Assembly: GCA_026388185.1 (NCBI GenBank)
Contig: JAPLKG010000014.1
Location: forward strand, 276,319 to 340,318
Direction of reading: 5' to 3'
DNA from: Candidatus Eiseniibacteriota bacterium
Lineage (GTDB): Bacteria; Eisenbacteria; RBG-16-71-46; JAFGJU01
Length of the DNA: 64,000 nt
Made by a program: the position numbers and the translations under genes. The notes below the pieces were generated by a model. It made no database searches. It saw nothing but the letters and a program-made list of their open reading frames with translations, and was not told the origin of the DNA. Of this stretch, positions 1 to 64,000 are shown one piece after another; position 1 is the stretch's first letter, and every line of letters begins with the position of its first letter.

Positions 1-3000
1 CTATTGTCTTCTCCTCTCCCGTCCCAACTCACCGTATGCACCCCTTGAAGCTCGCGGCCTTCTACCAATGTCTTCACAAGACGCCCTGATACGTCAAAAA
101 CCCGCACAAGCACGTGCGTGCCGTCCTCAGGCACCCCGTACTCTATCGTCGTCACCGGATTCATCGGGTTCGGATAGTTCTGAACGGCGTAGCCGGCGGC
201 CGGTGTGGCAAGAGTTCGCCCCGGCATTCTCAACGCAAACGGCATACCAGGATCCTGCGTGAGAAACGGTACCCAGTCCACCTTCCCGTAAAAGAGCATC
301 AGGAAATACGGATCGTCGGTCCCCCACCAGTTATACTCCGCCTTCACGCTGTCCGCCGTCCTGTTCATAACCCAGTAGCGACCCACAAGCTGACTGTCAG
401 TGAAGATCCGATTCACCCCAGAGTCAGGCTGCGCTCCCATGTCCGCATGCGCACTGTTCTTCACAACAACACCAAAATACGTGTAGTCGGTGATGCTGTT
501 CCTCTTAATCCCCACCTCCGCGCTTCCCTCTACGCTTATGCCAACTGTCCCGTTGTCCGCAAACACGTTCCGCTCCACTTGAAGATCGGAGCTACCGTAA
601 ACCTTCATCCCGGCAAGTACGTTCTCGATTCTGTTGTACGAAACCGATCCAGAAGTGATACCTGAGCTCTTGATCCCGTAGCGCAGACCCGAGGATGAGC
701 CGGTTATCACGTTGTGGTTCACGTCTACCACCAGGCAACTCAGTAGCTCAATGCCACTCACTCCGGTGCTACCAACGTCCAAAGTGTCGTAGCTGAGATA
801 CACGTCAGACTTGGAGATCTTGATCCCGTCGTTCGTGAAGTCCCTAAACACTCCGTGAGCCACCGTGAGACTTTCATACTCCGCCCGAAGCCCATTCTGG
901 AAGCCGGAAACGAAGACGTTCTCCACTGTGGTCCTACCCCTCACGGTCTCACTCACGCCGACCAGATCGATGCCGCACTCTCCGCCTCCCGCACTGCACC
1001 TAACACTGTCACCGACGAGCGTGTCAGCCAGGCAGTACTGCACGTAGATCCCGGTTGTTCCCGCGCCAGTCATGTCAAAACTCGACCCCTTCACCGAACA
1101 CGTGCACGCAAGAGCCCCAAAGAACTGAAGACCCGTGTTTGAGATATCCAGTAAGCGGCATCCATCGGCATACAGGTCCGTGTATGCACAGCGGAGCCCA
1201 TACTCGTGGTCCGACACGGTCACGCTGTCAAGACACAGCCCCACTGTCTCCATCACCCCGTAGCCCTTTATCCCGCACGTCAGACTATCTGCATCGCCGG
1301 AAATGGTCGTGGTACTGATGGAACCATGAGAACCCTGAGAAAGAAAAACCCCAACACTGTTCTTCCGAGAGACCCCGATGTCGCTACCCACGATCTCGAA
1401 TAATGAGCTTTCTCCGGATGCATTAAGACCATATTCCTCGCATCCCACCATTGAACAGTCGGTAAGATACGCGCTCGAAGCTTCGCCAGGCATATTGACA
1501 CCGCATCTCGGATGTCCTGCTATTGAGAAGTTATTGAGATGGGCGATCGCCCCTTGCCCCATCTCTACTCCCGCCTCTACGTTCTCGCCTTCGAGGCTAG
1601 TGTTAGTGACCTCGAGCACGCCGTCTACGCCAGTGAGGTCAATCCCGTAGTCTCCATCACCGCTTACCGTACAGTTCTCCAGTCTCACTTCCGCGTAGTC
1701 TCCCACGCGCACCCCGGTGTTGAGATCACAATTATCCAGAGTCAACGTCCCGTAGTCCGTTGCACGCACCCCGGTGTCGCTGTTGAAGCTTTCCAGAATG
1801 CTGTTCGAAGCCACTAACTCGCTCCCCACGCCTATGACGTCAATAACGTGCTCCGCACAACTAGTGATCCAACAACTGTCGAGTGCAACACTCCCGCTAT
1901 CGCTCACGATCACTCCCACGTCTCCATACTTGAGCGAACAGCACTTCATCTCCAGGTTCCCACTGCAATATATCCCTGCCCAGTCCCCAGGCTCTGGACT
2001 CTGCGCAGCCGGCACAAACCTGATAGGTTCGCCCGGGCTACCAACCGCATTCAGATCACCCGCCACTCGAAGGCTGCACGCCTCCGCAATGCTCACGTAC
2101 GTGCCGGGCTCAACAGCCAAGTCTGCACTCGCTTCAACTGTTACGTTTCCATTGACACGAATTGTGTCCATCCAGATAAAGTCGCCCGAAATAGAGCCAT
2201 GAGTCCAATACGGCACCACCTCGTAGGCATATCTGTAGTCCCACTCACTGTAATCATCCCCGCTCGGGTCGGGATCCCGGCCCGTTAGGCCCAGGATCAC
2301 CAAGGCAGCCTTCACCGAGTCGCCGAACTCTTCCACCGCAATGTTCACCTGCCCGCTACCAGCAGGCACATCAAGCTTCTTGACGTCAATCACGTCCTCC
2401 CCAGACTGAAACACGTGCTCCGCCGAGGAATAGGTGATGACAGATACCTGAAGCCTCTGCCCATACGGACCAAGCGGGAGCACGTCGTCCTGGCCTTCGG
2501 GTTGCCGCACAAAAACCTTGAGACTACAGGGACCGTCTGATCCGCTCTGAAAGTTGTACGTCGACTTAAACAGAATATAGTCGGCGCCCCAGGCACGTAG
2601 TGTGATGCTCGTATCAGCCGCTGGTGGCCCCGTCCATAGCGAATCGCTAGGATGACGGTATTGCGTAACCCATGCCCCACGATTAACCCACGTGCTGTCC
2701 AGCACATGCTCGTTCGGCAGAACCCCCGAGTTCGGAGCTCCAAGATCGATGTCTCTGAATAGACCCAGATCCTGGTAGGGACTAAAACCACGACCAAAAC
2801 CAAGCGTAACCGAATCGCCGGGAGCAATTCTTGTCGTGTCATCCAGTGCCTTAGCTATGGACCAATCCTGGAACAGAGCACAGAGTTTGCCCATACGCGT
2901 GCTATCCCCAGGAGCCAGCTTCGTGTGCCACGGCTTTGTAGGATCAATCAAGACTTCGCCGAGCTGGTACATACCCCGATCCGCAGTGTAAGACTGAGTA

Positions 3001-4036: not shown

Positions 4037-5950
4037 TCAGCGCAATACAACTAACTTCTGGACGCCACCTCTGGCACGCCCTCCTGCCAAGAAACGAGCA
4101 AAGTAGACCCCGGGTCTCACCTCCTTACCCTTCTCGTCCCTTCCGTCCCACAATACCTCTCCCTCTCCCCCAGGACACTCTATGCGCCTCACTAACCTCC
4201 CGGATATATCCATAACCTCGAACTCCGCCTCTCTCCTGGCCCCCGCGTAATAACCCAACATGAAACCCACACCTGACGGATTGGGCCTCACTCCAATAAA
4301 ACCTGCTCTCGTACCTCCCTCACACGGCTTCACCAACACCGGTCCCGCTTCCTCGCACAACTCCACAAAAGGCGACTCTACGTCCAACCAGTATCGATAC
4401 CTCCTGCCCAACTCCACCGTGCTGTCTACAAAACTCTCAACGTCCACCAATGGCTCTACCGTGTACACCAGCTCCCTCTCCCCCTCTGCATCAGGCTCTC
4501 CACAACCACCTGCGTCTGCACGATACACCTCGAACCTCACCTGCCCCCGACAGCTCCACTCAACCACCACCCGCTCTCCCTCTACACGAGCGCTGAAACC
4601 CTTGACCCACGGCTCGTACAGAAAATCATCAGAATACCGAGCCCAAATGTCATAGTCGCTCCCACTGGGACCACCGCTCCGCCTCCACACTACCCACACC
4701 CTACCTCCTCCTACACCCACGTCCGGCCACCCATCTAGTGCCACAAGCTCGCTGTCAGGCTCCGTCACCAACTCCTCCCCCTTCCACCAGCAACCCGACC
4801 AACGGCTTATGTACACGTCCCCACGATACACGTTGTTATGATCTTCCCTCGGCCACACTACTACAGGCCCACCGTCCACAGTGCCGCTCATCATGGGCTT
4901 GTAGTCCCACTCACTCGGAACTGCGTGAGGTAACGGTATGGGACCGCTGATACTCCAGCCCTCACCATCCCAAAAAGCTCCACGAATATCGGAAGTGCTG
5001 TCAAGGTACACTATCCAGGGGCCCTCACCGCCGCTGAAACATATCGAAGGACCACGGCCCTTAATGGAGAGAAGGGACTCCGACCAACCTGTGTCACCCC
5101 GATAGATGCAGTGAAGCGTATCTATATAGTCCATCGCTTGCCATACAACCCAAGGTACACCTGCGTCAAACACCGCTATGTCTGGATACCCGTCCTGAAT
5201 CTCCGGATGATCTATGTGCTCCAATGATGACCATATCCCATCCACACGACTGCGGAAGAAGAGATCGTAGTCATACTTCGTCCCCCTCTTCACAGGGGTG
5301 CTTATCACCCCCCAAACCAACATCGTGTCCACGCACGCCATCTCATAGATCTGTCCTTCCCCGCCTCCCGCATACAGCGTCTCGGGCTCACACCAGCCTG
5401 CACCGGCCCAGTGCGTCGTCAACACGTCACAGTAAGGCGACGTCCCTCCTCGATACCGCTCCCAAATCACCCACGGAATGCCATCTCCCCCAATCGACGC
5501 TCCCCCCAACCATGCATCCTTCTGCACATTGTCCGGGTGCACCCTCTCCTCGGGCGTCCAACCATCCCCTGTCCAACGAGAGTACATAATCTCAAAATCA
5601 CCCTGACTAGCGTCAATACCCATCCAAAACACCCAAGCCGTCCCCACACTGTCAACTACCACCCTTACGCTCAAGTCGTCAGAGGTATCCTCCACATTAA
5701 CCTGCATCTCAGGACTCCACATGGCTGCAAAAACGGAAGATGCTGTTGAAAGGAGAAAAGCGCAAGACAGAACAGAGGTTGTCAAGAGCAGTACTGTGCG
5801 GTCGAGCAGATGTGTGCGGCTAACACCGCGGCCAAGCCAGCGGTCACGCCCACGGCCGTGATCGCCTCTGGAACCCAGCCTCCCGCCTTGCCTGCGTGAA
5901 ATAGCCCCCTCACGAGCGGACCACATGTCACAAACCTCGAGTGAAACCAA
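4037..5950 (-). CDS. Secreted Trp/Gly-rich repeat protein (beta-propeller-like, with 'W-x-G-x-G-W' repeats spaced about 50 aa) carrying a T9SS C-terminal sorting domain (..GVYFARFLAGGRARGGVQKLVVLR). The true start is probably internal (TTG/ATG near 5790) giving signal peptide TTSVLSCAFLLSTASSVFA.
   Basis: 637-aa ORF. The C-terminal 80 aa match the Por/T9SS CTD pattern. Periodic motifs RWTGDGW, HWAGAGW, RGDTGWS, WDGEGWS, RWSGCWW. Confidence 0.6.
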   Translation of the reverse strand: MVSLEVCDMWSAREGAISRRQGGRLGSRGDHGRGRDRWLGRGVSRTHLLDRTVLLLTTSVLSCAFLLSTASSVFAAMWSPEMQVNVEDTSDDLSVRVVVDSVGTAWVFWMGIDASQGDFEIMYSRWTGDGWTPEERVHPDNVQKDAWLGGASIGGDGIPWVIWERYRGGTSPYCDVLTTHWAGAGWCEPETLYAGGGEGQIYEMACVDTMLVWGVISTPVKRGTKYDYDLFFRSRVDGIWSSLEHIDHPEIQDGYPDIAVFDAGVPWVVWQAMDYIDTLHCIYRGDTGWSESLLSIKGRGPSICFSGGEGPWIVYLDSTSDIRGAFWDGEGWSISGPIPLPHAVPSEWDYKPMMSGTVDGGPVVVWPREDHNNVYRGDVYISRWSGCWWKGEELVTEPDSELVALDGWPDVGVGGGRVWVVWRRSGGPSGSDYDIWARYSDDFLYEPWVKGFSARVEGERVVVEWSCRGQVRFEVYRADAGGCGEPDAEGERELVYTVEPLVDVESFVDSTVELGRRYRYWLDVESPFVELCEEAGPVLVKPCEGGTRAGFIGVRPNPSGVGFMLGYYAGARREAEFEVMDISGRLVRRIECPGGEGEVLWDGRDEKGKEVRPGVYFARFLAGGRARGGVQKLVVLR

Positions 5951-19554: not shown

Positions 19555-20595
19555 CTAGGCCAGCGGAGAGACGAATAGCATGAGCCACTCTTTGAGGCTC
19601 AGTCCGAATGCCTCTTTTCCATAGCGTGTGGCGCAGACTGTCTTTATGTTGCTGAACTGTCTGCCTGTACTCACGGCGTGTTTCTTTAGCCTCAACGCAA
19701 ATTCAATCGCCTCCCCCGAGAACATCGTTTCTCTAAAACCCCCCAGTCTGCGAAAGGCGCTTTTTCTTACGAACATCACCCCCAGGCTGACGCCGTTGAG
19801 CCTCAGCGGAAGGCGGGAGATCATCGCCGCGAGTCTTGAACTCAGGCTCCCATCCTCTGACGCCACATTTGTCCCGCCTCCAAGTGACTTTCTGTTGGCA
19901 GTTGCCTGAAGAATACGACAGAGAGACCCTTTCTTGGGCATCAGGTTCGGTCTGAGAAGAACCAGAATCTTTCCCCTGGCAACGCTTGCTGCGGCGTTGA
20001 TTGCCGCCGCGCAATTCGGGAGGTTTCTGGACACAATTTTGGCATCGAATTCCTCCGCCGAGGCAAAGTAGGTAAGTGAGGCGGAGCGAGTGATCCGGTC
20101 CGAGCCTTTGATTGAGGTCGACGTGGCAACGAGGGCGGCCCCGGCCGCTAGAGTGGAATCGCCGGCCCCAATGGAGTCCGTGGACTCGGAGCCGTATGCA
20201 GCCACGATTATCTCTGCCTTTCTTCCAAGCGTTCGAGAGAGTTCCTCTCCTGCTTCAGCGAGCAGTTCCAGCGTCCGCAGCAACTCCCTTGAGCAACTAG
20301 TCGCAGCCACGATGACAGACAGGGCTGGCCTGGACTCTGGCAGTGCATTCTGCAATGGACGTCGCGGTTTGGGCTGAAGGGCCACCGACTCGGTGTCGAG
20401 GTCTTCGAGCAATGCTTCAATCGTATCGTTAAGAATGGCAGCCAATAGCGCAGACCTCCTTAGCAATGCGACAACCGGGCCCCGCGCACTAGGCAGAGCA
20501 GGGCCGACATGTATTTTGGATTGCAATAGACGTGCCAGAGGCAAAGCCGGGGTTAAGCGATCGTCCGGGCATGGTGCAGCGGGGCGATTATCCAT
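19555..20595 (-). CDS. Hypothetical protein, weakly GT-A glycosyltransferase-like. Start uncertain.
   Basis: ORF only. SVIVAA.. segment reminiscent of GT2 N-terminus. No firm motif. Confidence 0.3.
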   Translation of the reverse strand: MDNRPAAPCPDDRLTPALPLARLLQSKIHVGPALPSARGPVVALLRRSALLAAILNDTIEALLEDLDTESVALQPKPRRPLQNALPESRPALSVIVAATSCSRELLRTLELLAEAGEELSRTLGRKAEIIVAAYGSESTDSIGAGDSTLAAGAALVATSTSIKGSDRITRSASLTYFASAEEFDAKIVSRNLPNCAAAINAAASVARGKILVLLRPNLMPKKGSLCRILQATANRKSLGGGTNVASEDGSLSSRLAAMISRLPLRLNGVSLGVMFVRKSAFRRLGGFRETMFSGEAIEFALRLKKHAVSTGRQFSNIKTVCATRYGKEAFGLSLKEWLMLFVSPLA

Positions 20596-21576: not shown

Positions 21577-23283
21577 GTGATTCTCGTGGGCACGGTGGCA
21601 AGATCGGTCGACGCGAGACAACCCTCTCGGAGGCATCGCGTTGCATCTATCGTTCACTACGAACAGGCCTTTTTCATCCGGCAGATTATCGCCGCATCCG
21701 TTCCGGCAGTCAGCCTTGTCGTGAGGCATTCTTTCCCCAACTTGATGTTTGCCTTCTACGTCGTCATTGCCGTCACGTGTCTCAATCTCTTCTACTACTG
21801 GCTCACCGTGACCGGGAGATTCCGTTCTTCCTTCAAATGGGTTCAGATCGGCATCGACATGTTTCTTTGGACGCTCCTCATACACGTTACCGGCGGGAAA
21901 GACAGCGTTTTCTTCTTTCTCTATCCGCTCGAGATACTGGTGGCGGCTTTCACGCTCTCCGCGTCAGGCTGCGCGTACGGCGCCACGCTTGCGGGTGTTT
22001 TCTACACTATCGATGTAGGTTTTCTCGGCTCACATGCGGACCTGGGAGGCACCCACATCGTCAGACTCTTTTTCCTCTCGGCAATCGCAGCCATATCCGT
22101 CCTCGTAGTCAGAAAACTCGAAAAGAAGACGGTCGAGGTGGAAAGGCTCAGCGAGATGTTGCGCGAGCGGGCCGAAAGCGCAGAGACAAGCCTGGGTGCA
22201 GTTCTCGACACCGTGGGCGACGGCCTCCTGATACTGGATGAAAAAGGTGGGTTGCTCTCCGTAAACGGCCCGTTCGCGAGAATGTGTGAAATTGCAGACG
22301 GAAGGCTGCCTGGAGAAGCGGCGCGCGGAACACCATTCTACAACGTCAAGGCTCGATTGCTGGAATTGCTGAGCGGGGGAGCCGAAGATGAGACGGTAGA
22401 GATTACTTTTCCACAGGAATCCGGGCGCCCACGAGGGTTCCACCTTAAAACCAAGGTGTTCAAGCGGCACGGTGAAAGATGCATCATGGCGATCGCTTCG
22501 GATGGCGTTCTCGAAAGCGAGAGGAACGACGCGCTATTTCACAACGGTGATGCCGGCGAGACGGATTCGCTTCCGGGCGTTGGCGAGACAGCCCTCGTCA
22601 TAGCTCACGAAGTCAGAAATTCCTTGACCTGCATCATGGGGTTGCTGTCGCTGCTCAACGAGGATTTGTCAGGGAAAGCGGAATCCGTTGGATTGCTCAG
22701 GAAGGCCGTGGGTGCGGCCGAAGACTTGAACTTATTCGTGTCCGATCTCCTTGTCTACTCACAACGCGTCGAACCGCGATTAGAGAAAACAGATCTTGTG
22801 AGCCTCCTGAATTCGGTGATCGAGTTGGTCTCAGGCAAGCTCGATGGCACTAAGAACGTGAGACTTACAAGAGAGTTTTCTGTGAGTCGGCTTGAAGCTG
22901 AAGTGGACCCCAGATACATGCAACGCGTGATCATAAATCTATTTCTCAATGCATATCAGGCGGTGAACGAGGAAGGCAGTGTGTGCATTCTCTTGCGCGA
23001 GGAGGATGGGAACGCCGTGATAGAGGTGAAAGATGACGGATGCGGGATATCGAGCGAACACATCGACAAGATATTTGAACCATTTTTCACCGCGAAGGGT
23101 AAGGGTAGCGGACTCGGACTCGCGATTGCGAAAAGGCTCGTCGAGGCGCATCGAGGCAACATTAGCGCGATCAGTAACCCGGAGGTGGGAAGCACGTTGA
23201 CCGTTCGGGTTCCGGCCGCGCGACATGATGCCGAGGTACGCGAGAGAACGAACGAACTCTTGTGCGAGACAACCAAGGTCTGA
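21577..23283 (+). CDS. Sensor histidine kinase with multi-TM N-domain, PAS-like region, HisKA and HATPase_c
   Basis: 6 predicted TM helices. H-box IAHEVRNSLTCIMG. N, G1 and G2 boxes (NLFLNAYQA, DDGCGI, GKGSGLGLAI). Confidence 0.8.
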   Translation: MILVGTVARSVDARQPSRRHRVASIVHYEQAFFIRQIIAASVPAVSLVVRHSFPNLMFAFYVVIAVTCLNLFYYWLTVTGRFRSSFKWVQIGIDMFLWTLLIHVTGGKDSVFFFLYPLEILVAAFTLSASGCAYGATLAGVFYTIDVGFLGSHADLGGTHIVRLFFLSAIAAISVLVVRKLEKKTVEVERLSEMLRERAESAETSLGAVLDTVGDGLLILDEKGGLLSVNGPFARMCEIADGRLPGEAARGTPFYNVKARLLELLSGGAEDETVEITFPQESGRPRGFHLKTKVFKRHGERCIMAIASDGVLESERNDALFHNGDAGETDSLPGVGETALVIAHEVRNSLTCIMGLLSLLNEDLSGKAESVGLLRKAVGAAEDLNLFVSDLLVYSQRVEPRLEKTDLVSLLNSVIELVSGKLDGTKNVRLTREFSVSRLEAEVDPRYMQRVIINLFLNAYQAVNEEGSVCILLREEDGNAVIEVKDDGCGISSEHIDKIFEPFFTAKGKGSGLGLAIAKRLVEAHRGNISAISNPEVGSTLTVRVPAARHDAEVRERTNELLCETTKV

Positions 23284-23312
23284 AGCTTTTCGTTTGGAGT
23301 GGCCGACAGAGG

Positions 23313-24698
23313 ATGAAAGATGTTCTTCTCGTAGATGACGATCGCCGCATTCTCGAGACGATTGGTGAGATCTTAGAACGTAAAGCGCTCAGCTTTGAGG
23401 CCGCAACGAGCGTAGAGGAGGCGTTGTCTACACTCGGCGGCGAGACTTTCCGGGTCGTGCTCACAGACGTGAAAATGCCGGGTCAGGATGGGCATTCGCT
23501 CCTCCGCGAGATCAAATCGCTCTATCCCGACACGGAGGTGGTACTTCTCACCGGTTTCGGCAGCGTCGAAGGTGCCGTCAGTGCCTTGAAGGAGGGAGCG
23601 TACGACTACATTCTCAAGCCTTTTGAGCGGGAGGCGCTTGAAGGTCTCGTTGGGCGTGCGCTTGAGAAGTCTCGCCTCGTGAGCGAAACGAGGGAGCTGC
23701 GTAAGCTTCTTTCGGAGAGGTATCGGTTTCACAACGTAATCACGAGGGACGAGCGCTTGCTGAAAGCACTTGACCTTCTGGAGACGGTTTCGGATTTCAA
23801 TGCCACAATCATGATTACGGGCGAGACCGGGACGGGCAAAGAACTCATTGCGAAATCGGCTCATTTCAACGGCAACCGCAAGAACAGACCCTTTGTGAAA
23901 GTCAATTGCTCTGCAATCCCAGAGGGGCTGCTTGAAAGCGAGCTCTTCGGGCACGAGAAGGGAGCGTTCACTCACGCAACCGCACGCAGGATCGGCAAGT
24001 TCGAGCACGCAGACGGAGGAACCATCTTCCTTGATGAATGCGCCGACATCCCGAGGGCGATCCAGGTCAAGCTGTTGAGGGTCCTAGAACAGAAAGAGTT
24101 CGAGAGAGTCGGCAGCAACGAGACCGTTCACGTTGACGTGCGAGTCATTGCCGCGACGAATTCCGATCCCTGCCTGGCCATGGCCGAAGGGAGAATTCGA
24201 GAGGACCTTTTCCACAGACTCAACGTGATTCCGATCAGCATTCCCCCTCTGCGCGAGAGAAAGTGTGACATCCCCTTGCTGGTCGAGCACTTTCTTGATA
24301 AGTTCGGTGGTTCCAGACAAAGGACTCTTCGAGTGTCCCCGGAGGCGATGCGGACTCTCGTCGAGCATGATTGGCCGGGCAACGTTCGAGAGCTGGAGAA
24401 CCTGATCGAGAGGCTCTCCATCATCGTGAAGGGCCCGCTTGTGAGGCCTTCCGATCTGCCGGAACAAGGCAGAAGCCAAAAATGCGTATCCGGCGGCAGT
24501 GCTCCAGGTGGATCGCGTCCTCTCCGGGACGTCGAGAAAGAACACATTCTTAAGACCCTCCAACAATGCCGCGGCAACGTCGCCAAGACCGCAAGATTGC
24601 TCGGCATTGACCGCACCACCCTTGCCCGTCGCTTGAAGAAATATGGCGTCGGTGAAAAATCCAGCCGCAAGACGCACCCGCAACAATTTCACGAATGA
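23313..24698 (+). CDS. Sigma54-dependent response regulator (NtrC family: REC + AAA sigma54-interaction + Fis HTH) with variant GAFTHA loop
   Basis: LLVDDD..D..MPG REC. Walker A GETGTGKE, ESELFGHEKGAFTHA, C-terminal HTH LGIDRTTLARRLKKYG. Confidence 0.85.
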   Translation: MKDVLLVDDDRRILETIGEILERKALSFEAATSVEEALSTLGGETFRVVLTDVKMPGQDGHSLLREIKSLYPDTEVVLLTGFGSVEGAVSALKEGAYDYILKPFEREALEGLVGRALEKSRLVSETRELRKLLSERYRFHNVITRDERLLKALDLLETVSDFNATIMITGETGTGKELIAKSAHFNGNRKNRPFVKVNCSAIPEGLLESELFGHEKGAFTHATARRIGKFEHADGGTIFLDECADIPRAIQVKLLRVLEQKEFERVGSNETVHVDVRVIAATNSDPCLAMAEGRIREDLFHRLNVIPISIPPLRERKCDIPLLVEHFLDKFGGSRQRTLRVSPEAMRTLVEHDWPGNVRELENLIERLSIIVKGPLVRPSDLPEQGRSQKCVSGGSAPGGSRPLRDVEKEHILKTLQQCRGNVAKTARLLGIDRTTLARRLKKYGVGEKSSRKTHPQQFHE

Positions 24699-24935
24699 AA
24701 GAGGCGTGAGACCTCCGTGGACCGCGCAAGGACCCGCCTTGCATTGAGGCAGGTTGCACATGTGCGGCCTAATGCATCACGTGCCCCAGTCCGTCGTTTC
24801 CCGCCATGTTCCGCTCACAAGTTCCTGAAGACTGATGTGAAGTGCCTCAGTGTCTGTAGGGAGGATCACGTCTTTAGGACATCCACACATGCCGCAATCG
24901 CTTGTCTGGCAAGCAAATGAGGCCTTTCACGTGAG

Positions 24936-24952
24936 GCGGCACGCATCTTGCC
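24936..24952 (+). promoter_or_regulatory. Candidate sigma54 (-24/-12) promoter cGGCACGcatcTTGCc
   Basis: GG and GC elements at the consensus 10-nt spacing (TGGCACG-N4-TTGC), 1 mismatch. About 280 nt upstream of the IPTL-CTERM-like gene and downstream of the sigma54 activator. Confidence 0.35.
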
Positions 24953-25231
24953 CTGCTTCTAAGTGCTAGTTCATTCACGGGTAATGTCGCTTGATGGTCT
25001 GTTGTGGGCGGCGATGGTGCCCGAAGTGACGCGAGGGGCGCTTTTGCGTCTGTGTGAGAAGCCGGAGTTCTTGGGGGGGTGATGCCCGGAAGCGTGGGAT
25101 TGAGGATTGGGTGGTCGTGACGAGGGGTTGAGGCGGTGCCGCAATGGTTTCTAATTTCGCGTGTTGTGTCGGATGGCGCGTCATGACTTGCGCGTGACGT
25201 CGTGAGCTCGTCCGAGGGAAGGAGGCAGGAA

Positions 25232-25738
25232 ATGAAGAAGGTTCTCGCTCTATTTTTGTTGGGAAGCGTACTGTTGTTGGTTCAGGTCTATGCAGTCAGT
25301 GCCGGGACAGCCTTGTCGGACAGGACGATTTCCATTGAATGCAGCCCAACTTTCAGTGTCCCTCAGTCGCCGATCACGTTCGGCGATGACACGAATGTTA
25401 CGTGGGAGGTCAGCGCCGACTGCACGACAACCGCAGACAGCGTCAGGATCGTCTTTGGGGTCGATAACCCGTGGTCTGCGACTCAGGCTGAGACGTTTAC
25501 AACATTCCCGGACACCCTTGTCACCTCTCCTCCTACCACAAGGGAGGGTGACTTCTTATACAAGGTCATCCGGTACAAGAACGGCAGTCCCGTTGACACA
25601 CTTACAGCCAGGGTGATATGCGCAGGTCGAGGTCCAGGCTTGCCTTCGCTGAGCACCTGGGCTGTACTCATTCTGGTCCTTGCAGTGATTGCAGTGTCAA
25701 TTGCCTTCTTGAGGCGGCGAAAGATAGTCGTTACGTAG
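25232..25738 (+). CDS. Small secreted protein with IPTL-CTERM-like C-terminal sorting signal (LPSLSTW + TM helix + RRRK)
   Basis: GGAGG RBS, signal peptide MKKVLALFLLGSVLLLVQVYA. C-terminus GPGLPSLSTWAVLILVLAVIAVSIAFLRRRKIVVT has the tripartite motif/TM/basic architecture. Confidence 0.5.
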   Translation: MKKVLALFLLGSVLLLVQVYAVSAGTALSDRTISIECSPTFSVPQSPITFGDDTNVTWEVSADCTTTADSVRIVFGVDNPWSATQAETFTTFPDTLVTSPPTTREGDFLYKVIRYKNGSPVDTLTARVICAGRGPGLPSLSTWAVLILVLAVIAVSIAFLRRRKIVVT

Positions 25739-25808
25739 CACCTCGGTGTTGGATTGGGCCGGCAACATCACTGTGCCGGCCCACAATACGCGGTCAATCT
25801 TGATAAGA

Positions 25809-25852
25809 ACCGCCCCTGCCTCCATGCGAGGCCGGGGCGGCTTCTTTGTTTC
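25809..25852 (+). terminator. Rho-independent terminator (GC stem CCGCCCCUGCC...GGCCGGGGCGG followed by CUUCUUUGUUU)
   Basis: Perfect GC-rich inverted repeat followed by a T-tract, 70 nt after the stop of the 25232-25738 gene. Confidence 0.6.
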
Positions 25853-25983: not shown

Positions 25984-26946
25984 ATGAAGCTCAAGGAGTT
26001 CTACAACAAGTGCGTTGAGGCTGGAATTGCGGGGGACCGGAGAGGGAAGGCTTTCATAACAAGCCTTCTCAAGGAAGAGAAGAAGAGATACGACAAGCTC
26101 GAGGGTTTTGACAAAGAGTGCTACGACGTCGAGCGGCTTCACAATCCCTACACGGACTGCCGAATTCTCTACGGCGATCTAAACACACAAATCAAGTGCA
26201 TGATGGTCGGCATAGATGCTCACGCGGACGAGCTGCTTCTGGCCAACGAACTGCGCAGACGCGGGAAGCAGATCGATGCCGTCTTGACGCATCATCCTGC
26301 CGGATTTGCAGTGAAGCGTCTTCCCGAGGTGATGGACATACAAACCGAGCAGTGGATTGCCTTTGGCGTACCGACGCATCTTGCCGAGGCCATGATCGAA
26401 GAGAAAAAAACGTGGGCCGTCAGACAGTTCCACGTCAGGAACACGGACGCACCGGTAGACATCGCTCGTATTCTTGACATTCCGTTCATGGCCACACATA
26501 CTCCGGCCGACAACTGGGCCGCGGGCTATCTGCAGAAGAAAGTTGACAAGGCAAAGCCCAGGACCGTCGGCGATCTCATCGATCTGCTTCGTGAAGTTTC
26601 CGAATATCGCTACCATGCCAGCCTACAGGCAGGGCCGACGCTGAGTTGCGGTGGCAAGGAGAGTCGCGCCGGGAAAGTGTATGTTGATATGACTGGCGGG
26701 ATCATGGCCGGCAAGGGCTATCTTCCCGAATTGTCCAAGCGCGGCATCAGCACGTTGGTTGTCATGCACATCCCGGATGACGCGCTCGACAAGGCCAAGG
26801 AAGAGAAACTGAACATCATCGTGGCCGGTCACATAGCGAGCGACACGCTCGGTATGAACCTTCTTCTCGACCGCGCGCTGTCGAAAGGTGTCGAGATCGT
26901 AGAATGCGCAGGGTTCAAGAGATTTCCGCGAGCCGTGGAGAAATAA
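25984..26946 (+). CDS. Nif3-family (YqfO/YbgI-like) dinuclear metal centre protein
   Basis: DAVLTHHP, MATHTPADN, IVAGHIASD conserved His motifs. RBS AAAGGAG 7 nt before ATG 25984. Confidence 0.55.
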   Translation: MKLKEFYNKCVEAGIAGDRRGKAFITSLLKEEKKRYDKLEGFDKECYDVERLHNPYTDCRILYGDLNTQIKCMMVGIDAHADELLLANELRRRGKQIDAVLTHHPAGFAVKRLPEVMDIQTEQWIAFGVPTHLAEAMIEEKKTWAVRQFHVRNTDAPVDIARILDIPFMATHTPADNWAAGYLQKKVDKAKPRTVGDLIDLLREVSEYRYHASLQAGPTLSCGGKESRAGKVYVDMTGGIMAGKGYLPELSKRGISTLVVMHIPDDALDKAKEEKLNIIVAGHIASDTLGMNLLLDRALSKGVEIVECAGFKRFPRAVEK

Positions 26947-40500: not shown

Positions 40501-41214
40501 ATGTTCAGATCATCGGTAATGGTAATCGTTGGCGTTTGTCTGCTTTTCGGACAAGCTCTTGGCTGCGGGACTCAGCTTTGCTGGAACACGGTCGTGCCGC
40601 GGAACATGGTAGGTTTCGATTTGAACGTAATCTCTACTGTCGACGGGCCTGACAAGTCGGGGCTGTATACCTACACGTACACGATTTACAGGCTCGACAA
40701 CGGGTTGAAGCTCGACAACGGAGCGTGGGTCCTTTACCGAGAGATCAGTCACATCTCTTTCTGGTTTCCCTGTGGGCCGGCCGCAGAGAGGAGCATAGTG
40801 AACGGCAAGTACGGCATCTCTGTTAGTTGCACGGACGCGGGGCAGTGTCCGACAATTGAAATGGGTGGAAGTCGTGGCATGGTTGAGCCCGTTATGAGCA
40901 GATCGTGCAGCGTGTTCTGGGGGTTCAAGCTTGACGCATGTGTCTGCCCCGACGACAGAATCTTCCTTCTTCCCAATCTCAATAAGATTTCTTTCCCCAC
41001 CGACCCCGAGGATCCCCACTGCACCATCACGTTCAAGAGTGGTAGCGCACCCGAGTGGGGCAAGTGGCTCGCGAAAGGCGGTGCCACACGGGGTGGGCTA
41101 CACGATGGAATGGGTTGGGTCTACGATGCTGGCGACATCAAGGTTCCGACCTGCGTTCCCGCTGTTGACGTCGGAGACATGACGTGGGGTGCAATCAAGG
41201 CAACCTACCGCTAG
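40501..41214 (+). CDS. Secreted Cys-rich hypothetical protein (possible lipoprotein)
   Basis: Signal peptide MFRSSVMVIVGVCLLFGQALGCG, about 14 Cys, no known domain. Confidence 0.4.
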   Translation: MFRSSVMVIVGVCLLFGQALGCGTQLCWNTVVPRNMVGFDLNVISTVDGPDKSGLYTYTYTIYRLDNGLKLDNGAWVLYREISHISFWFPCGPAAERSIVNGKYGISVSCTDAGQCPTIEMGGSRGMVEPVMSRSCSVFWGFKLDACVCPDDRIFLLPNLNKISFPTDPEDPHCTITFKSGSAPEWGKWLAKGGATRGGLHDGMGWVYDAGDIKVPTCVPAVDVGDMTWGAIKATYR

Positions 41215-54707: not shown

Positions 54708-55190
54708 CTACTCTTCTAGCAGATTCCCGAATCTCAACTGTCTTTGAGGGGCTTTCGCCTTGATAAGGCTGGAGACTTTCTCAACGAACTTCTCGGCCAC
54801 CGCGATAGAATGAGTCGCTTCTTTCAGCGAACAAGGTATGCCGGGTTCATAGATGAACCTGTGACGTTTTCGCCTCATGAAATCATAATCGTTCACAAGT
54901 TTCCTAAACTCATCTCCTAAAACCGAACCCGCAAATCTCACTATTGTCAAGTGCTTGTTCTTGATTTCCGGTCTGAACCCCTCGCTGAACATCAAACCCA
55001 ATCCCATTCTCAACATGGCATTGTAAGCATAGTTGTAGGCACATTCCGGATCCTCTCGTAGGTTTCTCTTCGCAGTTCTCAGATCAGTGCGGGCGCGCTT
55101 GATCAGCTTGGCTACCGCCCTTTGGTCTACAGGACACCTCTTGATCAATCCGTCCTTTTCAAGGGGTTTCTCGGAATGTCTAGAGCTCAT
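54708..55190 (-). CDS. HEPN-domain toxin (HepT-like), copy A
   Basis: 160 aa, R-x4-H region RRKRHRF. 11-nt overlap with the upstream MNT gene. Confidence 0.7.
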   Translation of the reverse strand: MSSRHSEKPLEKDGLIKRCPVDQRAVAKLIKRARTDLRTAKRNLREDPECAYNYAYNAMLRMGLGLMFSEGFRPEIKNKHLTIVRFAGSVLGDEFRKLVNDYDFMRRKRHRFIYEPGIPCSLKEATHSIAVAEKFVEKVSSLIKAKAPQRQLRFGNLLEE

Positions 55191-55755
55191 CCTCTTTTCC
55201 CACCAACATTATCTTTGGAGCCGTCAAGACCTCTTCGATGAAACCGCTCGCGACTCTTTTCTTCGCCCGGTATTCTTGCAGAGAGTAGATCGTCGGGTTG
55301 ATTTCTCTCCGGAGTTTTTTCTCCAATCCCGCAATCTTCTCGTTCAACACGGAGATGTCGGGACGCCCGATTATCATTAGATCGATGTCGCTGGTCGCTT
55401 TTTCTCGACCCGAAGCGAATGATCCATAAATGAAGGCCAGCCTTATGTCCTTGAAAGACGATAACGTTTTTCTTACTGCCCCTTCAACACCAACAGTCTT
55501 AGAGACTATGGCCTTCAGTTCCTTGAATAGGGGATGTCCAGTATTCAGAGAGTAGTAGAGCAGGTTTCCGACTCTGTGAGTGACGAATAGGTTATCCCTC
55601 TGAAATCTTAAGAGCTCTCTTCTTATGCTGCCCGCGGAGTAACCCAGGATGCGCTCAAGTTGTCGCAGATAGTATTTCTGGGATGGATTGCTGAAGAAAA
55701 GGGACAGCAAGCCCTGTCTGATTCTTGACTTCGTTACATATAGCGCTTCCAACAT
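55180..55755 (-). CDS. Nucleotidyltransferase (MNT/MntA-like) antitoxin with N-terminal wHTH, copy A
   Basis: GSFASGREKATSDIDLMII NTase motif. N-terminal HTH. AGGAG RBS before ATG 55755. Confidence 0.7.
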   Translation of the reverse strand: MLEALYVTKSRIRQGLLSLFFSNPSQKYYLRQLERILGYSAGSIRRELLRFQRDNLFVTHRVGNLLYYSLNTGHPLFKELKAIVSKTVGVEGAVRKTLSSFKDIRLAFIYGSFASGREKATSDIDLMIIGRPDISVLNEKIAGLEKKLRREINPTIYSLQEYRAKKRVASGFIEEVLTAPKIMLVGKEDEL

Positions 55756-55770
55756 CGTTGAACTCCTTCT

Positions 55771-55788
55771 TGAGTACAATTGTACTCA
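55771..55788. promoter_or_regulatory. Perfect palindrome TGAGTACAATTGTACTCA, putative autoregulatory operator of the HTH-MNT/HEPN operon (copy A). Identical site at 62764-62781 for copy B.
   Basis: 18-nt perfect inverted repeat 16 nt upstream of the MNT start, conserved in both copies. Confidence 0.55.
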
Positions 55789-60219: not shown

Positions 60220-61374
60220 CTATCTGAAAAGCGCCTTGATCTTGCCCCAGGTGGTGGGCAGTACAGATGTGGGACCGCAGCCGACACCCAAGGCGCCTAC
60301 CTGTCCACAACCAGGATGATTTGCGCAGGGCGAGGTACAGTTGATGTGGTAGTCCCCAGCAGCAGGATCACAAAAGAGAGGGTTTGCCGAGAAATCTTCA
60401 GACACCGACGTGCACGTATAGTAGTTTCCACGGCTGTTGTTCCATACGTCATTGCAGTGCAGTGTGGGTGACGATGAATGGGGCTGGGCGCAATCTATCC
60501 CGTACCATTCACTGCCAATCACGATATTGTTCTCCAGAAGTGGCGAGGCAGAATCAAGGGCAATGCCGACCTGGTTGTTGACTATCGTGTTACTATGCAC
60601 AGTTGGCGATGAATAGCTTATGTAGACACCATAACCCGTTCCGTCTACGATCAGATTCTCGTAGACTTCTGCCTGTGATGAAGCCCTGCACGAAACGCCG
60701 CCTGAACCATCCCTCATGATATTCCTGCGTACAACCGGAGAGCTACCTTGACAGGCAACCGCCATATCCTCGTTCCCGATGAACTCGTTGTTCTCAATGA
60801 CAGCCTGCGAAGTCAGACAATAAATCCCAGATCCATCAACGCTGCCGTACTCTGGCCATCCGCCCGTGTTGTTGCTTATTGTATTGCCGGAAACATATAG
60901 AACCGAAGCAGCATCAGCGGCTATGCCGCCCCCGGAGTTGTCCGTAATGACGTTGTCAATGATCTGAACATCTGAAGATTCACAGAAGATCCCACTCCCG
61001 GCATTGTTGGGCCAGTAATACCCAGAATACTGACCGTTGGTTATCGTAAGCCCTCGTATTACACCCGTGGCCGGAACATTGGTGCAATGGATAGCTCTGT
61101 GAAAGTCCCCGCCATGAATGCTGGTAACCGCGGTACCTTGTTCGCTAATTAGGGCGATGTTCTTTCCAGATATGGTCAAGGGCCCATAGTAATAGGGCTC
61201 ATAGTAATCACCCGGACCGACAAGGACTGTGTCGCCTGCAGCAGCAGAATCGATGCACGCCTGAATGGTCGTGCAATCCCCACTTCCATCCTGCCTCACA
61301 AGCCACGTGCGGGCGTCAGAGGCAACGGGGATGAGCAAGAGAAGAGAGAACAGAAGGAGGATGATAGCTCTCAT
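60220..61374 (-). CDS. Secreted right-handed parallel beta-helix repeat protein (pectate-lyase/NosD-like fold)
   Basis: Signal peptide MRAIILLLFSLLLLIPVASDA. Repeated (I/V)xxNx(I/V)xxNxxxG(I/V) turns. Confidence 0.6.
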   Translation of the reverse strand: MRAIILLLFSLLLLIPVASDARTWLVRQDGSGDCTTIQACIDSAAAGDTVLVGPGDYYEPYYYGPLTISGKNIALISEQGTAVTSIHGGDFHRAIHCTNVPATGVIRGLTITNGQYSGYYWPNNAGSGIFCESSDVQIIDNVITDNSGGGIAADAASVLYVSGNTISNNTGGWPEYGSVDGSGIYCLTSQAVIENNEFIGNEDMAVACQGSSPVVRRNIMRDGSGGVSCRASSQAEVYENLIVDGTGYGVYISYSSPTVHSNTIVNNQVGIALDSASPLLENNIVIGSEWYGIDCAQPHSSSPTLHCNDVWNNSRGNYYTCTSVSEDFSANPLFCDPAAGDYHINCTSPCANHPGCGQVGALGVGCGPTSVLPTTWGKIKALFR

Positions 61375-61700: not shown

Positions 61701-62183
61701 TCACTCTTCCAGCAGATTCCCGAATCTCGACTGTCTCTGAGGGGCTTTCGCTCTGATGAGGCTTGAGACTTTCTCAACGAACTCCTCGGCCACCGCGATA
61801 GAATGAGTCGCTTCTTTCAGCGAACAAGGTATGCCGGGTTCATAGATGAACCTGTGACGTTTTCGCCTCATGAAATCATAATCGTTCACAAGTTTCCTAG
61901 ACTCGTCTCCTAGAATCGAACCCGCAAATCTCACTATTGTCAAGTGCTTGTCCTTGATTTCCGGTCTAAACCCGTCGCTGAACATCAGACCCAGTCCCAT
62001 TCTCAACATGGCATTGTAAGCATAGTTGTAAGCACATTCCGGATCCTCTCGCAGGTTTCTCTTAGCAGTTCTCAGATCAGTGCGGGCGCGCTTCATTAGC
62101 TTGGCTACTGTCCTTTGGTCTACAGGACACCTCTTGATCAATCCGTCCTTTTCAAGGGGTTTCTCAGAATGTCTAGAGCTCAT
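61701..62183 (-). CDS. HEPN-domain toxin, copy B
   Basis: Near-identical to 54708-55190. Confidence 0.7.
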   Translation of the reverse strand: MSSRHSEKPLEKDGLIKRCPVDQRTVAKLMKRARTDLRTAKRNLREDPECAYNYAYNAMLRMGLGLMFSDGFRPEIKDKHLTIVRFAGSILGDESRKLVNDYDFMRRKRHRFIYEPGIPCSLKEATHSIAVAEEFVEKVSSLIRAKAPQRQSRFGNLLEE

Positions 62184-62748
62184 CCTCTTTCCCCACCAAC
62201 ATTATCTTTGGAGCGGTCAAGACCTCTTCGATGAAACCGCTCGCGACTCTTTTCTTCGCCCGGTATTCTTGCAGAGAGTAGATTGTTGGGTTGATTTCTC
62301 TCCGGAGTTTTTTCTCCAATTCCGCAATCTTCTCGTTCAACACGGAGATGTTGGGATTCCCGATTATCATCAAATCGATGTCGCTGGTCGCTTTTTCTCG
62401 ACCCGAAGCGAATGATCCATAAATGAAGGCCAGCCTTATGTTCTTGAAAGATGATAACGTTTTTCTTGCTGCCCCTTCAACACCAACAGTCTTAGAGACT
62501 ATGGCCTTCAGTTCCTTGAATAGGGGATGTCTAGTATCGAGAGAGTAGTAAAGCAGGCTTCCGACTCTGTGGGTGACGAATAAGTTATCCCTCTGAAATC
62601 TTAAGAGCTCTCTTCTTATGTTGCCCGCAGAGTAACCCAGGATGCGCTCAAGCTGTCGCAGATAGTATCTCTGGGACGGATTGCTGAAGAAAATGGACAG
62701 CAAGTCTTGTCTAATTCTTGACTTCGTTATATATAGCGTTTCTAACAT
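62173..62748 (-). CDS. HTH-MNT nucleotidyltransferase antitoxin, copy B
   Basis: Near-identical to 55180-55755. Palindromic operator at 62764-62781. Confidence 0.7.
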   Translation of the reverse strand: MLETLYITKSRIRQDLLSIFFSNPSQRYYLRQLERILGYSAGNIRRELLRFQRDNLFVTHRVGSLLYYSLDTRHPLFKELKAIVSKTVGVEGAARKTLSSFKNIRLAFIYGSFASGREKATSDIDLMIIGNPNISVLNEKIAELEKKLRREINPTIYSLQEYRAKKRVASGFIEEVLTAPKIMLVGKEDEL

Positions 62749-63288
62749 CGTCGAACTCCTTTTTGAGTACAATTGTACTCAGTATTGGATACAGCGGCAA
62801 GTCTTATCTAACCCCAGCCTTTGTACCGAAGTGGACTGTGCGACGAGCGTCCAAGGGCGGCATTCCAGATTGCACCACTGTCTGGTATTCGGAAGCCGCG
62901 GTGAGCCCTTCTGGCAATCAAGGCTGGACGACATCTGGCACGATCCGGCCAGGAAGACAGTTTGGAGGCGAGTTTATCCAAGCAGCACACACTTTCGCTG
63001 GTACTCGATCCGGTGACGCCTGATGTCCCAGTTCGCATAGACGACTCGGAAGCACGGGGCAGATTCGCGAGTCTCTTCTGCAGTTCGAATACTGGCACAT
63101 CTGGGGAGCCTGCCGCGGCGACGGGGCCTGTTGCATCCACGCTCGCTCCTGTGACTACCGCCTCGGGCCACCAAAGCAAGAGGAGCCAGCGCTTGGCCAG
63201 TCCATCGGTTGTGCTTAGTCTCTTGCCCAATCAGCAAGAGCCTCTATCTTCGCACACAAAAATACACTTGGTTTGTGCGGTATCTCTA

Positions 63289-64000
63289 TCAGCGCGTCAG
63301 CACTATCTTCCGCGCTTCCTTATGACCCCCGAAGTTGAGCTGAACGAAATACACTCCCGCCGGAAGCTTCGTCCCACGCGCACCCTTTCCATCCCAGTTC
63401 ACCATGTGCTGGCCAGCATCCTCCTCACCATCTCTGAGAACCGCTACCTGCCTACCTGCCACGTCATAAACGACTAACCGCACATGCCCACGCTCTGGCA
63501 ACGTGTACCCCAGGTGCGTCAATGCCTCAAACGGATTCGGCGCACCGCGACCGAGCAACAAGGCACCAGGAACTGCCCCTCCGCCTTCAACACCGACCAC
63601 GGTTCCAGTCCGCACATCCGCCTCCGTCACACAGTTGTACGGCAACGAAAACCACGGGGAACGCGGGAAAAACGGCGAATCCGTCAACGTGCGAAGCCGC
63701 CAGTGATACATTATGTTTGACGTAAGACCAGTCACCACCTTGGAGAGACCCACCACGCTGCCGCCACCTCCAGGAATTCCCGTGTTGTACGCCGAACCCG
63801 TAACGAGCCCGCTACCGTTGAACGGCGTCCCCAGCGGCTTCACCTCGCACTGGAGCCGCACATTGCCACGACCTAAGGGGGTGCGACCCACGGCTTTCAA
63901 GAGGAAACCATCAGCCGAGCCGGACAGACCCAGTAGCGCGATAGGCGCCGAGTCGTCGGTTCGCGCCTGGCGGGCGATGCGATGGAGCCCATCACCTTCG
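63289..64000 (-). CDS. C-terminal part (T9SS sorting domain) of a secreted protein whose start lies beyond the window end
   Basis: NPFEALTHLGYTLPERGHVRLVVYDVAGRQVAVLRDGEEDAGQHMVNWDGKGARGTKLPAGVYFVQLNFGGHKEARKIVLTR is a textbook T9SS CTD. The reading frame stays open to position 64000. Confidence 0.65.
   Translation of the reverse strand, partial: EGDGLHRIARQARTDDSAPIALLGLSGSADGFLLKAVGRTPLGRGNVRLQCEVKPLGTPFNGSGLVTGSAYNTGIPGGGGSVVGLSKVVTGLTSNIMYHWRLRTLTDSPFFPRSPWFSLPYNCVTEADVRTGTVVGVEGGGAVPGALLLGRGAPNPFEALTHLGYTLPERGHVRLVVYDVAGRQVAVLRDGEEDAGQHMVNWDGKGARGTKLPAGVYFVQLNFGGHKEARKIVLTR

Follow-up and report, generated by a model that had tools for sequence, protein, structure and literature searches.

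A conserved sigma-54 two-component locus of Candidatus Eisenbacteria encodes a secreted protein with a divergent IPTL-CTERM tail

The locus raises the question of whether a small secreted protein with a C-terminal tail belongs to a known protein-sorting system, and whether the two-component pair encoded next to it controls its expression. The window, the whole 64-kb stretch of DNA that was analysed, originates from a metagenome-assembled genome of the uncultured organism Candidatus Eisenbacteria. All the elements that a sequence-only reading had described are present where it had placed them, and its core claim, that a two-component pair acting through sigma-54 drives a secreted protein whose sorting tail is IPTL-CTERM-like, is supported and has been strengthened by comparative data. 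The locus is probably a sigma-54-dependent two-component expression module for a cell-envelope protein with an IPTL-CTERM-class sorting signal. The system is of a known type, which it extends by a divergent IPTL-CTERM tail. Each locus-wide statement about expression, DNA binding, and cleavage is a sequence-based prediction.

The tailed gene (25232-25738, plus strand) encodes 168 residues and is preceded by the Shine-Dalgarno sequence AGGAGG (25220-25225, plus strand), 6 nt before the ATG. The protein begins with a Sec-type signal peptide, MKKVLALFLLGSVLLLVQVYAVSA (25232..25303), which ends in ..AVSA with a putative cleavage site before the following Gly, in line with the proposal of a secreted protein. 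The signal peptide is followed by a beta-rich, fast-evolving ectodomain (25304..25642), in which an NPW motif is invariant. Relative to the related locus L015, the tail and signal peptide are 75–78% identical (signal peptide 75%), the body of the protein 34%, and neighbouring housekeeping genes 79–90%. An ectodomain that diverges this fast would fit a component exposed at the surface, for instance an adhesin, a coat protein, or a receptor. The AlphaFold2 model of the ectodomain, built on nine sequences, has a pLDDT of 56, which was too poor for a fold search, and a sequence search of the PDB returned nothing meaningful for this domain. A precedent for a surface destination is the S-layer protein mela_00855 of Methylomirabilis lanthanidiphila, which is about twice as long as the window protein. 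Two GC-rich hairpins (25755..25852, plus strand; folding z = -5.4) follow the gene. The second (25805-25846), with the U-tract CUUCUUUGUUUC behind it, is the intrinsic terminator that had been noted, and the tailed gene is monocistronic. An Rfam match to Pxr over the terminator is at chance level.

The tripartite tail (25643..25738, plus strand) consists of a PSLSTW motif (25643-25660; VPSLSTW with the preceding residue), a 17-residue hydrophobic helix AVLILVLAVIAVSIAFL (25661-25711), and the basic cluster RRRK (25712-25723), after which four residues, IVVT, lead to the stop codon. Its location at the extreme C-terminus of a protein with an N-terminal signal peptide, the order of motif, helix, and Arg cluster, and the pattern [IVL]P[ST]LS.W[GA] are shared with IPTL-CTERM (TIGR04174 / PF18203). 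The motif differs from that of IPTL-CTERM in having PSLSTW instead of PTLSEW (Ser for Thr and Thr for Glu), and the window copy has Ala in place of Gly. The helix of window-type tails is almost invariant (IAVSI) and, unlike the IPTL-CTERM helix, lacks the central Gly. Profile–profile alignment with hhalign of the tail profile (A7) to genuine IPTL tails (A9) gave a probability of 97%, E = 8e-11, and 44% identity over 34 columns. For every tail tested, IPTL_CTERM ranks first or second among the NCBIfam matches, and there is a further match of the tail to the internal signal segment in the model of midcut-by-XrtH proteins. None of the tails tested reaches the curated IPTL-CTERM cut-offs, with scores of 14.2–20.1 bits against 20.5 for the NCBIfam model (TIGR04174) and 13.7–13.8 against 20.8 for the Pfam model (PF18203). 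The window tail scores 15.7 bits with TIGR04174, just under the cut-off, and genuine IPTL-CTERM members in the Zixibacteria locus L026 score 28–32 bits. Judged by these profile comparisons, the tail is homologous to IPTL-CTERM as a divergent form, which bears out the proposed IPTL-CTERM likeness.

The sub-threshold scores are also consistent with the tail being a permanent C-terminal anchor, in which case the protein would stay in the inner membrane, bitopic and facing the periplasm, with neither cleavage nor any later sorting step. A plain stop-transfer anchor, too, looks like a helix with basic residues behind it, and neither the window nor the sequences of related loci contain a sorting enzyme. 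However, a plain anchor seldom keeps every residue when its ectodomain has fallen to 34% identity, as is the case here, and the tail has profile homology to IPTL-CTERM. The motif and helix moreover recur on three unrelated ectodomains. In close relatives, the same tail is carried by two other, unrelated secreted families, a 313-residue family and a DUF7901 protein, just as genuine IPTL-CTERM tails occur on unrelated secreted proteins, including DUF7901 cargo. Among the best 120 DUF7901 homologues, 72 have a PEP-CTERM pattern, 14 an IPTL-like pattern, and three T9SS domains; a few more tails of the VPSLSx or TPSLSx type were seen by eye. All of these tails begin directly after the same ..LDLAFVIT domain end, and they include the graded series IPTLSEWG, VPSLSEWG, and TPSLSTWG. 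The window-type tail thus replaces PEP-CTERM, IPTL-CTERM, and T9SS signals at one and the same junction, which argues against a plain anchor. We therefore consider the anchor unlikely and prefer the sorting signal.

The protein family is rare. Among 1.84 billion representative proteins there are 12 matches, five of which belong to the family of the window protein. A tail-profile search of a 5.8-billion-protein set added only four tiny new matches; at that database size, E-values exclude tail-only matches, and a local test showed that the profile itself works. A scan of GTDB species genomes gave only two matches, archaeal GlmS proteins with LALALIAVSIA, which are false; by the patterns used, the window family has no relative among the GTDB species representatives.

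Upstream of the tailed gene lies the sigma-54 (-24/-12) promoter element cGGCACGcatcTTGCc (24937..24952, plus strand), which had been described as near-consensus. It reads GGCACG-N4-TTGC, and most relatives have TGGCACGCAAGTTGC, in agreement with TGGCAC-N5-TTGC with GG and GC 10 nt apart. A promoter match in a single sequence is weak evidence: the 16-mer with two mismatches occurs four times in the window against 9.2 expected, which is not above chance, and the exact core GGCAC-N5-TTGC has two copies in the 64 kb where 0.44 would be expected. What gives the promoter call its weight is conservation: all related loci have the core unchanged, with a constant spacing of ~295–300 nt to the ATG. The dyad TGCACATGTGCGGCCTAATGCA (TGCACAT..AATGCA, 24755..24776), a candidate enhancer site for binding of the activator, is located ~180 nt upstream of the promoter. 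Within the window it is unique, and 11 loci, that of the DUF7901 tailed gene among them, have one copy at the corresponding position.

Between the promoter and the gene is a putative 5' leader of ~280 nt (24953..25231, plus strand). Its sequence is conserved across loci, with a mean identity of 80% over 10 loci and the invariant blocks AGCCGGA, GGGRGGTGAT, and GGAAAG. A search of the leader against Rfam gave no match, and a conserved structure is not supported by either the folding energy (MFE z = +0.84) or covariation, which is weak. A GTG upstream ORF behind a Shine-Dalgarno-like block was rejected as a conserved peptide, as its frame is not kept in the alignment.

The regulator encoded upstream (23313..24698, plus strand) has an ORF open from 23262, with the ATG at 23313 as the likely start according to the gene call and orthologues. 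It contains the Pfam domains REC (1e-25), Sigma54_activat (2.9e-65), an AAA lid, and HTH_8 (8e-18). Together with the GAFTGA-type loop, the REC, Sigma54_activat AAA+, and HTH_8 domains identify it as an NtrC-family response regulator and sigma-54 activator. The loop that contacts sigma-54 reads GAFTHA instead of GAFTGA (23961..23978, plus strand), as had been pointed out, and the variant is kept in five of the five loci that cover the loop, among them L014, L015, L016, and L021. GAFTHA is a natural variant that was already known and is considered active (DVU2894; PMC4641369).

The order of regulator, sigma-54 element, and tailed gene is kept in nine distinct related metagenomic loci, and the tailed gene has been inherited together with the kinase and activator genes. 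The slot immediately downstream is variable and is filled, in close relatives, by other tailed genes with a sigma-54 element apiece. L005, L007, L014, L015, L017, and L021 have two tailed genes per locus, and the clade has three tailed protein families; one tailed gene was seen in the 64 kb of this genome. Where a DUF7901 tailed gene has been added, a duplicate of the cassette of dyad and promoter precedes it within the same locus. Such duplication, and the preservation of the order of regulator, dyad, promoter, and tailed gene in nine loci while the downstream cargo varies, make it very unlikely that the adjacency is incidental, with the kinase and regulator controlling other genes and a different activator serving the sigma-54 promoter of the tailed gene. 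What speaks for incidental adjacency is that the minus strand has a second sigma-54 promoter, a perfect one, at a distance of 4.4 kb (20522-20537). As this second promoter has no dyad, at least two sigma-54 inputs may exist. Neither the locus of P0022, a tail-bearing protein that is more distant, nor the Zixibacteria XrtH cluster has a sigma-54 element, and therefore the regulatory link is specific to this clade. Such tails are not in general tied to sigma-54 control: window-type genes have dedicated two-component and sigma-54 control, whereas the Zixibacteria XrtH locus does not.

The sensor histidine kinase (ORF 21577..23283, plus strand) has 568 residues from the first GTG; its probable start is at 21586, as in public gene calls. 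Six hydrophobic segments at residues 31–182 are connected by loops of at most 10 residues and leave no periplasmic domain. PAS, HisKA, and HATPase_c (3e-25) domains follow C-terminal to this membrane block. The membrane block is the best-conserved part of the kinase, with 87% identity to the L015 orthologue against 61–77% for the other domains. This strong conservation points to sensing within the membrane. The arrangement of six membrane segments with short loops before PAS, HisKA, and HATPase domains is that of PilS, although the kinase does not match the Pfam model 6TM_PilS (PF25323; 10 bits against 27). In the PilS–PilR–sigma-54/pilA system of Pseudomonas aeruginosa, too, the kinase has six segments and lacks a periplasmic domain, the regulator is of the NtrC type, and a sigma-54 promoter serves the adjacent gene, which encodes a small protein anchored in the membrane by a single helix. 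The target differs: PilA has an N-terminal prepilin helix, whereas the window cargo has a Sec signal peptide, no prepilin leader, and a C-terminal helix, and is not a type IV pilin.

The sequence-only reading had likened the pair to PrsK/PrsR, and a generic likeness does hold. In both systems, a kinase and an NtrC-type activator are tied to genes for proteins with an exosortase-type signal, which is tripartite and C-terminal, and cargo genes share an upstream DNA box. PrsR is also the third-best model for the regulator. Nevertheless, membership was rejected, as both HMM cut-offs are missed: PrsK (TIGR02916) scores 85.4 bits on the kinase against a cut-off of 300, in a match confined to the ATPase domain and surpassed by AtoS, and PrsR (TIGR02915) scores 372.5 bits on the regulator against 502.6, below AtoC and NtrC. 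The six-segment membrane domain of the kinase is of another kind, the cargo has no PEP motif and no match to PEP-CTERM models at E <= 1, and the 64-kb window contains no XrtA, other exosortase, or EPS cluster. Membership of the locus in the PrsK/PrsR, XrtA, PEP-CTERM system is thus exceedingly improbable.

The processing enzyme of IPTL-CTERM had been called unknown, which is out of date as far as curated assignment goes: at that level, the enzyme class is exosortase H. In the Zixibacteria locus L026, three proteins above the IPTL-CTERM cut-off adjoin an exosortase H gene (XrtH, TIGR04177; 118.7 bits against 86), and the model of the XrtH-associated membrane protein, NF041730, has a weak match beside them, just below its threshold (32.4 bits against 35). 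No exosortase, rhombosortase, or XrtH homologues were found in the 64-kb window or the Eisenbacteria loci, and a search of all related-locus DNA for XrtH homologues and proteins with many membrane segments found none. The expectation of other tailed proteins together with a sortase-like enzyme is consequently borne out for the tailed proteins, in close relatives, and not for the enzyme, in the window and related loci. Our literature search found no experiment on the cleavage, destination, or regulation of IPTL-CTERM and exosortase H proteins.

In the preferred reading of a sorting module, the phosphorylated activator would bind the dyad and open the sigma-54 promoter. Sec would export the 168-residue protein, and its tail would keep it in the inner membrane until an XrtH-type exosortase, with its gene in another part of the genome, cleaves the protein at PSLSTW or close by and passes it on to the cell surface. 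The ligand sensed by PilS is the membrane helix of the pilin PilA (PMC6058289). By analogy, the six-segment kinase might read the load of uncleaved IPTL-type tails in the membrane and feed back on sigma-54 transcription of the variable set of tailed proteins; sensing of tails is pure conjecture here, and we regard this extension as quite doubtful. If true, exosortase H cargo would for the first time have a regulatory circuit dedicated to it, with a sorting signal doubling as a signalling ligand.

IPTL-CTERM and exosortase H are defined by curated models only, and the clade offers a divergent subclass of tails; as these fall below current cut-offs, the proteins that carry them are annotated as hypothetical. 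With an uncultured organism and a rare family, practical impact is limited. The compact conserved cassette of kinase, activator, dyad, sigma-54 promoter, and long leader marks cargo genes and could help to find the regulon, and the variable cargo slot shows the swapping of tailed surface proteins between close relatives. Through this clade, intramembrane sensing can be linked to a sorting pathway in a concrete and testable way.

The sequence-only reading had described a sigma-54 two-component pair followed by a secreted protein with an IPTL-CTERM-like sorting signal, and the kinase, regulator, promoter, tailed gene, and terminator are all present at positions 21577–25852 of the window. The gene of the histidine kinase (21577/21586–23283, forward strand) is followed by that of the response regulator (23313–24698, forward strand), an intergenic region of 534 nt, and the gene of the tailed 168-aa protein (25232–25738, forward strand). 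Two hairpins (25755–25852, forward strand, folding z = −5.4) end in the clean intrinsic terminator. The next gene, NIF3-like, starts at 25984 under a sigma-70-like promoter of its own, and the 168-aa gene is thus monocistronic. MCX5801471.1 (NTX17_08805), from a Candidatus Eisenbacteria MAG, has the same sequence as the 168-aa protein.

The kinase has six hydrophobic segments within residues 31–182, connected by loops of at most ten residues, and lacks a periplasmic domain. PAS, HisKA, and HATPase_c domains are located C-terminal to the membrane segments. The regulator is composed of REC, sigma-54 AAA+, AAA lid, and Fis-type HTH domains. The pair had been likened to PrsK and PrsR; however, the kinase reaches 85 bits against PrsK (cut-off 300), with the ATPase domain alone matched, and the regulator 372 bits against PrsR (cut-off 502.6). 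The NCBIfam models that score best for the two proteins are AtoS and AtoC, and none of these matches reaches its cut-off. By these scores, the pair is a generic system of the NtrC class rather than PrsK/PrsR. Membership in the PrsK/PrsR–XrtA system was rejected on the tested features. The GAFTHA loop of the regulator, which had been noted as a departure from the canonical GAFTGA, is present, and identical in each of the five related loci whose sequence spans it. The variant is not remarkable. The natural variants reported from Desulfovibrio vulgaris activators include it (DVU2894), and it is regarded as compatible with activity (PMC4641369).

The proposed near-consensus sigma-54 promoter of the tailed gene is supported by the comparison of loci: all homologous loci whose upstream sequence is available share an unchanged core, at a distance of ~295–300 nt 5' of the ATG, and TGGCACGCAAGTTGC is the element of most relatives. 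When searched as a 16-mer with two mismatches, cGGCACGcatcTTGCc occurs four times in the window versus 9.2 expected, which is not above chance; for the exact core GGCAC-N5-TTGC, there are two occurrences in the 64 kb, with 0.44 expected. The weight of the predicted promoter comes from conservation, not from the single-sequence match. An inverted repeat, the dyad TGCACATnTGCnGnnnAAnGCA (24755–24776), lies ~180 nt further upstream of the sigma-54 element. It is unique in the window, each locus has a single copy in the corresponding position, and it is a plausible candidate enhancer for the adjacent activator. The inferred leader of ~280 nt (24953–25231) has 80% identity across ten loci. The blocks AGCCGGA, GGGRGGTGAT, and GGAAAG are invariant in alignment A8, which includes the leaders, and in the middle of the leader, GGGRGGTGAT matches an extended Shine-Dalgarno sequence perfectly. 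The many GGA motifs of the leader might indicate CsrA-type control. An Rfam search of the leader returned no match, and a leader structure is not supported by its folding energy, which is ordinary (z = +0.84), or by covariation, which is weak.

Elsewhere in the window, a weakly GT2-like gene (19555–20445, reverse strand) probably starts at a TTG with the RBS AAGGAGG, and a perfect sigma-54 consensus, TGGCACGTCTATTGCA (20522–20537, reverse strand), is located ~75 nt upstream of that start. The start of the long open reading frame as called, at 20595, is probably too far upstream. The orthologue in L015, the longest related Eisenbacteria locus, matches TIGR04283 with E = 8e-15, under the cut-off, and the sigma-54 element is conserved there (L015 3392–3407, reverse strand). 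The element is not accompanied by the dyad of the tailed genes, so there may be a second sigma-54 input besides that at the tailed genes.

Only eight homologues of the 168-aa protein, all metagenomic and with 43–62% identity, were found among 5.8 billion proteins, and a scan of GTDB species genomes found none. The comparative set consisted of the contigs of the homologues and a metagenome scan. The order of regulator, dyad, sigma-54 element, and tailed gene is kept in nine distinct loci, and L015 shares the wider order of the window: small membrane proteins, GT-like gene, DinB, kinase, regulator, tailed gene, NIF3, NadE, CvpA, and LexA. The content of the slot that separates the tailed gene from NIF3 differs among loci. 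The window, L008, and L016 have nothing in this slot; in L005, L007, L014, L015, and L017, it contains the gene of a 313-aa secreted protein with the C-terminus ..TPAIGTWGVVLLVVLLAATSVWLIRRRR; and in L020 and L021, that of a 282-aa DUF7901 protein with the C-terminus ..TPSLSTWGVLILVLALIAVSIALLRKRIRVGA. Each added slot gene has its own sigma-54 core 230–280 nt upstream, and a copy of the dyad is also present at the DUF7901 gene. The conserved gene order and the duplication of the dyad–promoter cassette make it very unlikely that the two-component pair lies next to the tailed gene by incidental adjacency. The usual order is inverted in locus L003, where the 168-aa-type gene follows the 313-aa-type gene, and an extra TGGCAT-N5-TTGC is located downstream of the tailed gene (2577–2591, forward strand), with no forward-strand gene called beyond it.

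All members of the 168-aa family have an unchanged PSLSTW motif and basic cluster, and their helix is invariant over much of its length (IAVSI). The identity to L015 is 75% in the signal peptide, 34% in the ectodomain, and 78% in the tail, with 90% and 79% for the neighbours NIF3 and NadE. The likeness to IPTL-CTERM holds in that this model is among the top two NCBIfam matches for every tail, but the scores of 14.2–20.1 bits are under the cut-off of 20.5. The other model matched recurrently is midcut-by-XrtH, in its internal signal segment. When compared with genuine IPTL-CTERM tails, the tail profile reached a match probability of 97% (E = 8e-11). Among 1.84 billion representative proteins, an exhaustive HMMER scan (E ≤ 0.001) returned 12 matches: five members of the 168-aa family itself, two other small secreted proteins with similar tails, three IPTL-type fragments (IPTLST.., VPTLSTWG..), and two junk repeats.

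The strongest functional argument that the tail may be a sorting signal comes from the DUF7901 proteins. Among the best 120 homologues, with tails typed by regular expression and a few by eye, the tail starts directly after the same ..LDLAFVIT domain end. The regular expressions assigned a PEP-CTERM pattern to 72 of the 120 and an IPTL-like pattern to 14. A few more have VPSLSx- or TPSLSx-type tails by eye; several of these carry the PF18203 flag, and the name IPTL-CTERM protein is given to one. Three have a T9SS C-terminal domain. The PSLSTW tail thus occupies a junction at which different sorting signals replace one another, and it grades into IPTL-CTERM. That the tail is a plain, uncleaved membrane anchor is unlikely, given its invariance at the residue level and its reuse as a module. 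In seven DUF7901 homologues (P0036, P0039, P0041, P0044, P0045, P0060, and P0125), a recurrent end ..FPILR.LLGL replaces the PEP-CTERM, IPTL, or T9SS tail.

The processing enzyme, which had been called unknown, can be assigned an expected class. In the Zixibacteria locus L026 (CP070742.1), three proteins over the IPTL-CTERM cut-off (28–32 bits) surround two genes, one of which encodes exosortase H (XrtH; TIGR04177, 118.7 bits, cut-off 86), so XrtH is the class expected for the tail. The other gene is a weak, just sub-threshold match to the model of the exosortase H-associated membrane protein (32.4 versus 35). This compact XrtH cluster (L026 9274–18388) also holds a choice-of-anchor J protein, one of its IPTL-CTERM proteins is a DUF7901 protein, and the sigma-54 element is absent from it. 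Neither the window nor any fetched Eisenbacteria locus contains an XrtH homologue or another candidate with many membrane segments, which is consistent with a single housekeeping enzyme for many cargo genes.

The comparisons establish the parts of the system, their co-inheritance, the homology of the tail, and its modular use. In the proposed mechanism, the regulator would be phosphorylated by the kinase, bind the dyad, and activate the sigma-54 promoter. The 168-aa protein would be exported by Sec, retained via its tail, and cut by an XrtH-type exosortase for surface delivery. The S-layer of Methylomirabilis, formed by an IPTL-CTERM protein, is a precedent for a surface fate (PMC8671808). The layout of the locus is similar to that of the PilS–PilR–sigma-54 control of pilA, in which the ligand is the membrane helix of the pilin (PMC6058289), and the membrane block is the best-kept part of the kinase relative to L015 (87%, against 61–77%). 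It is therefore an attractive idea, though a distinctly unlikely one, that the kinase might sense uncleaved tails.

Two other secreted proteins of the window, one ending in ..TWGAIKATYR (40501–41214, forward strand) and one beta-helix/NosD-like, ending in ..TWGKIKALFR (60220–61374, reverse strand), have a common C-terminal motif that matches no Pfam or NCBIfam model, so this end may be a further sorting or anchoring signal of the lineage. Nearly identical copies of a toxin-antitoxin-type HEPN and nucleotidyltransferase (MNT) gene pair (54708–55779 and 61701–62772, reverse strand), 7 kb apart, flank a low-GC stretch (0.44 at 58–60 kb).

The window also encodes a T9SS type A C-terminal sorting domain (TIGR04183, 33.6 bits, cut-off 23) and a sub-threshold second copy (63289–63900 and 4037–5950, reverse strand), so no fewer than two types of C-terminal sorting signal are predicted for the organism. 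With three corrections, the interpretation as a sigma-54 pair with an IPTL-CTERM-like sorted protein is supported. The tail represents an Eisenbacteria subclass of IPTL-CTERM that scores under the threshold, and it is linked to a putative dedicated sigma-54 two-component cassette whose cargo slot varies.
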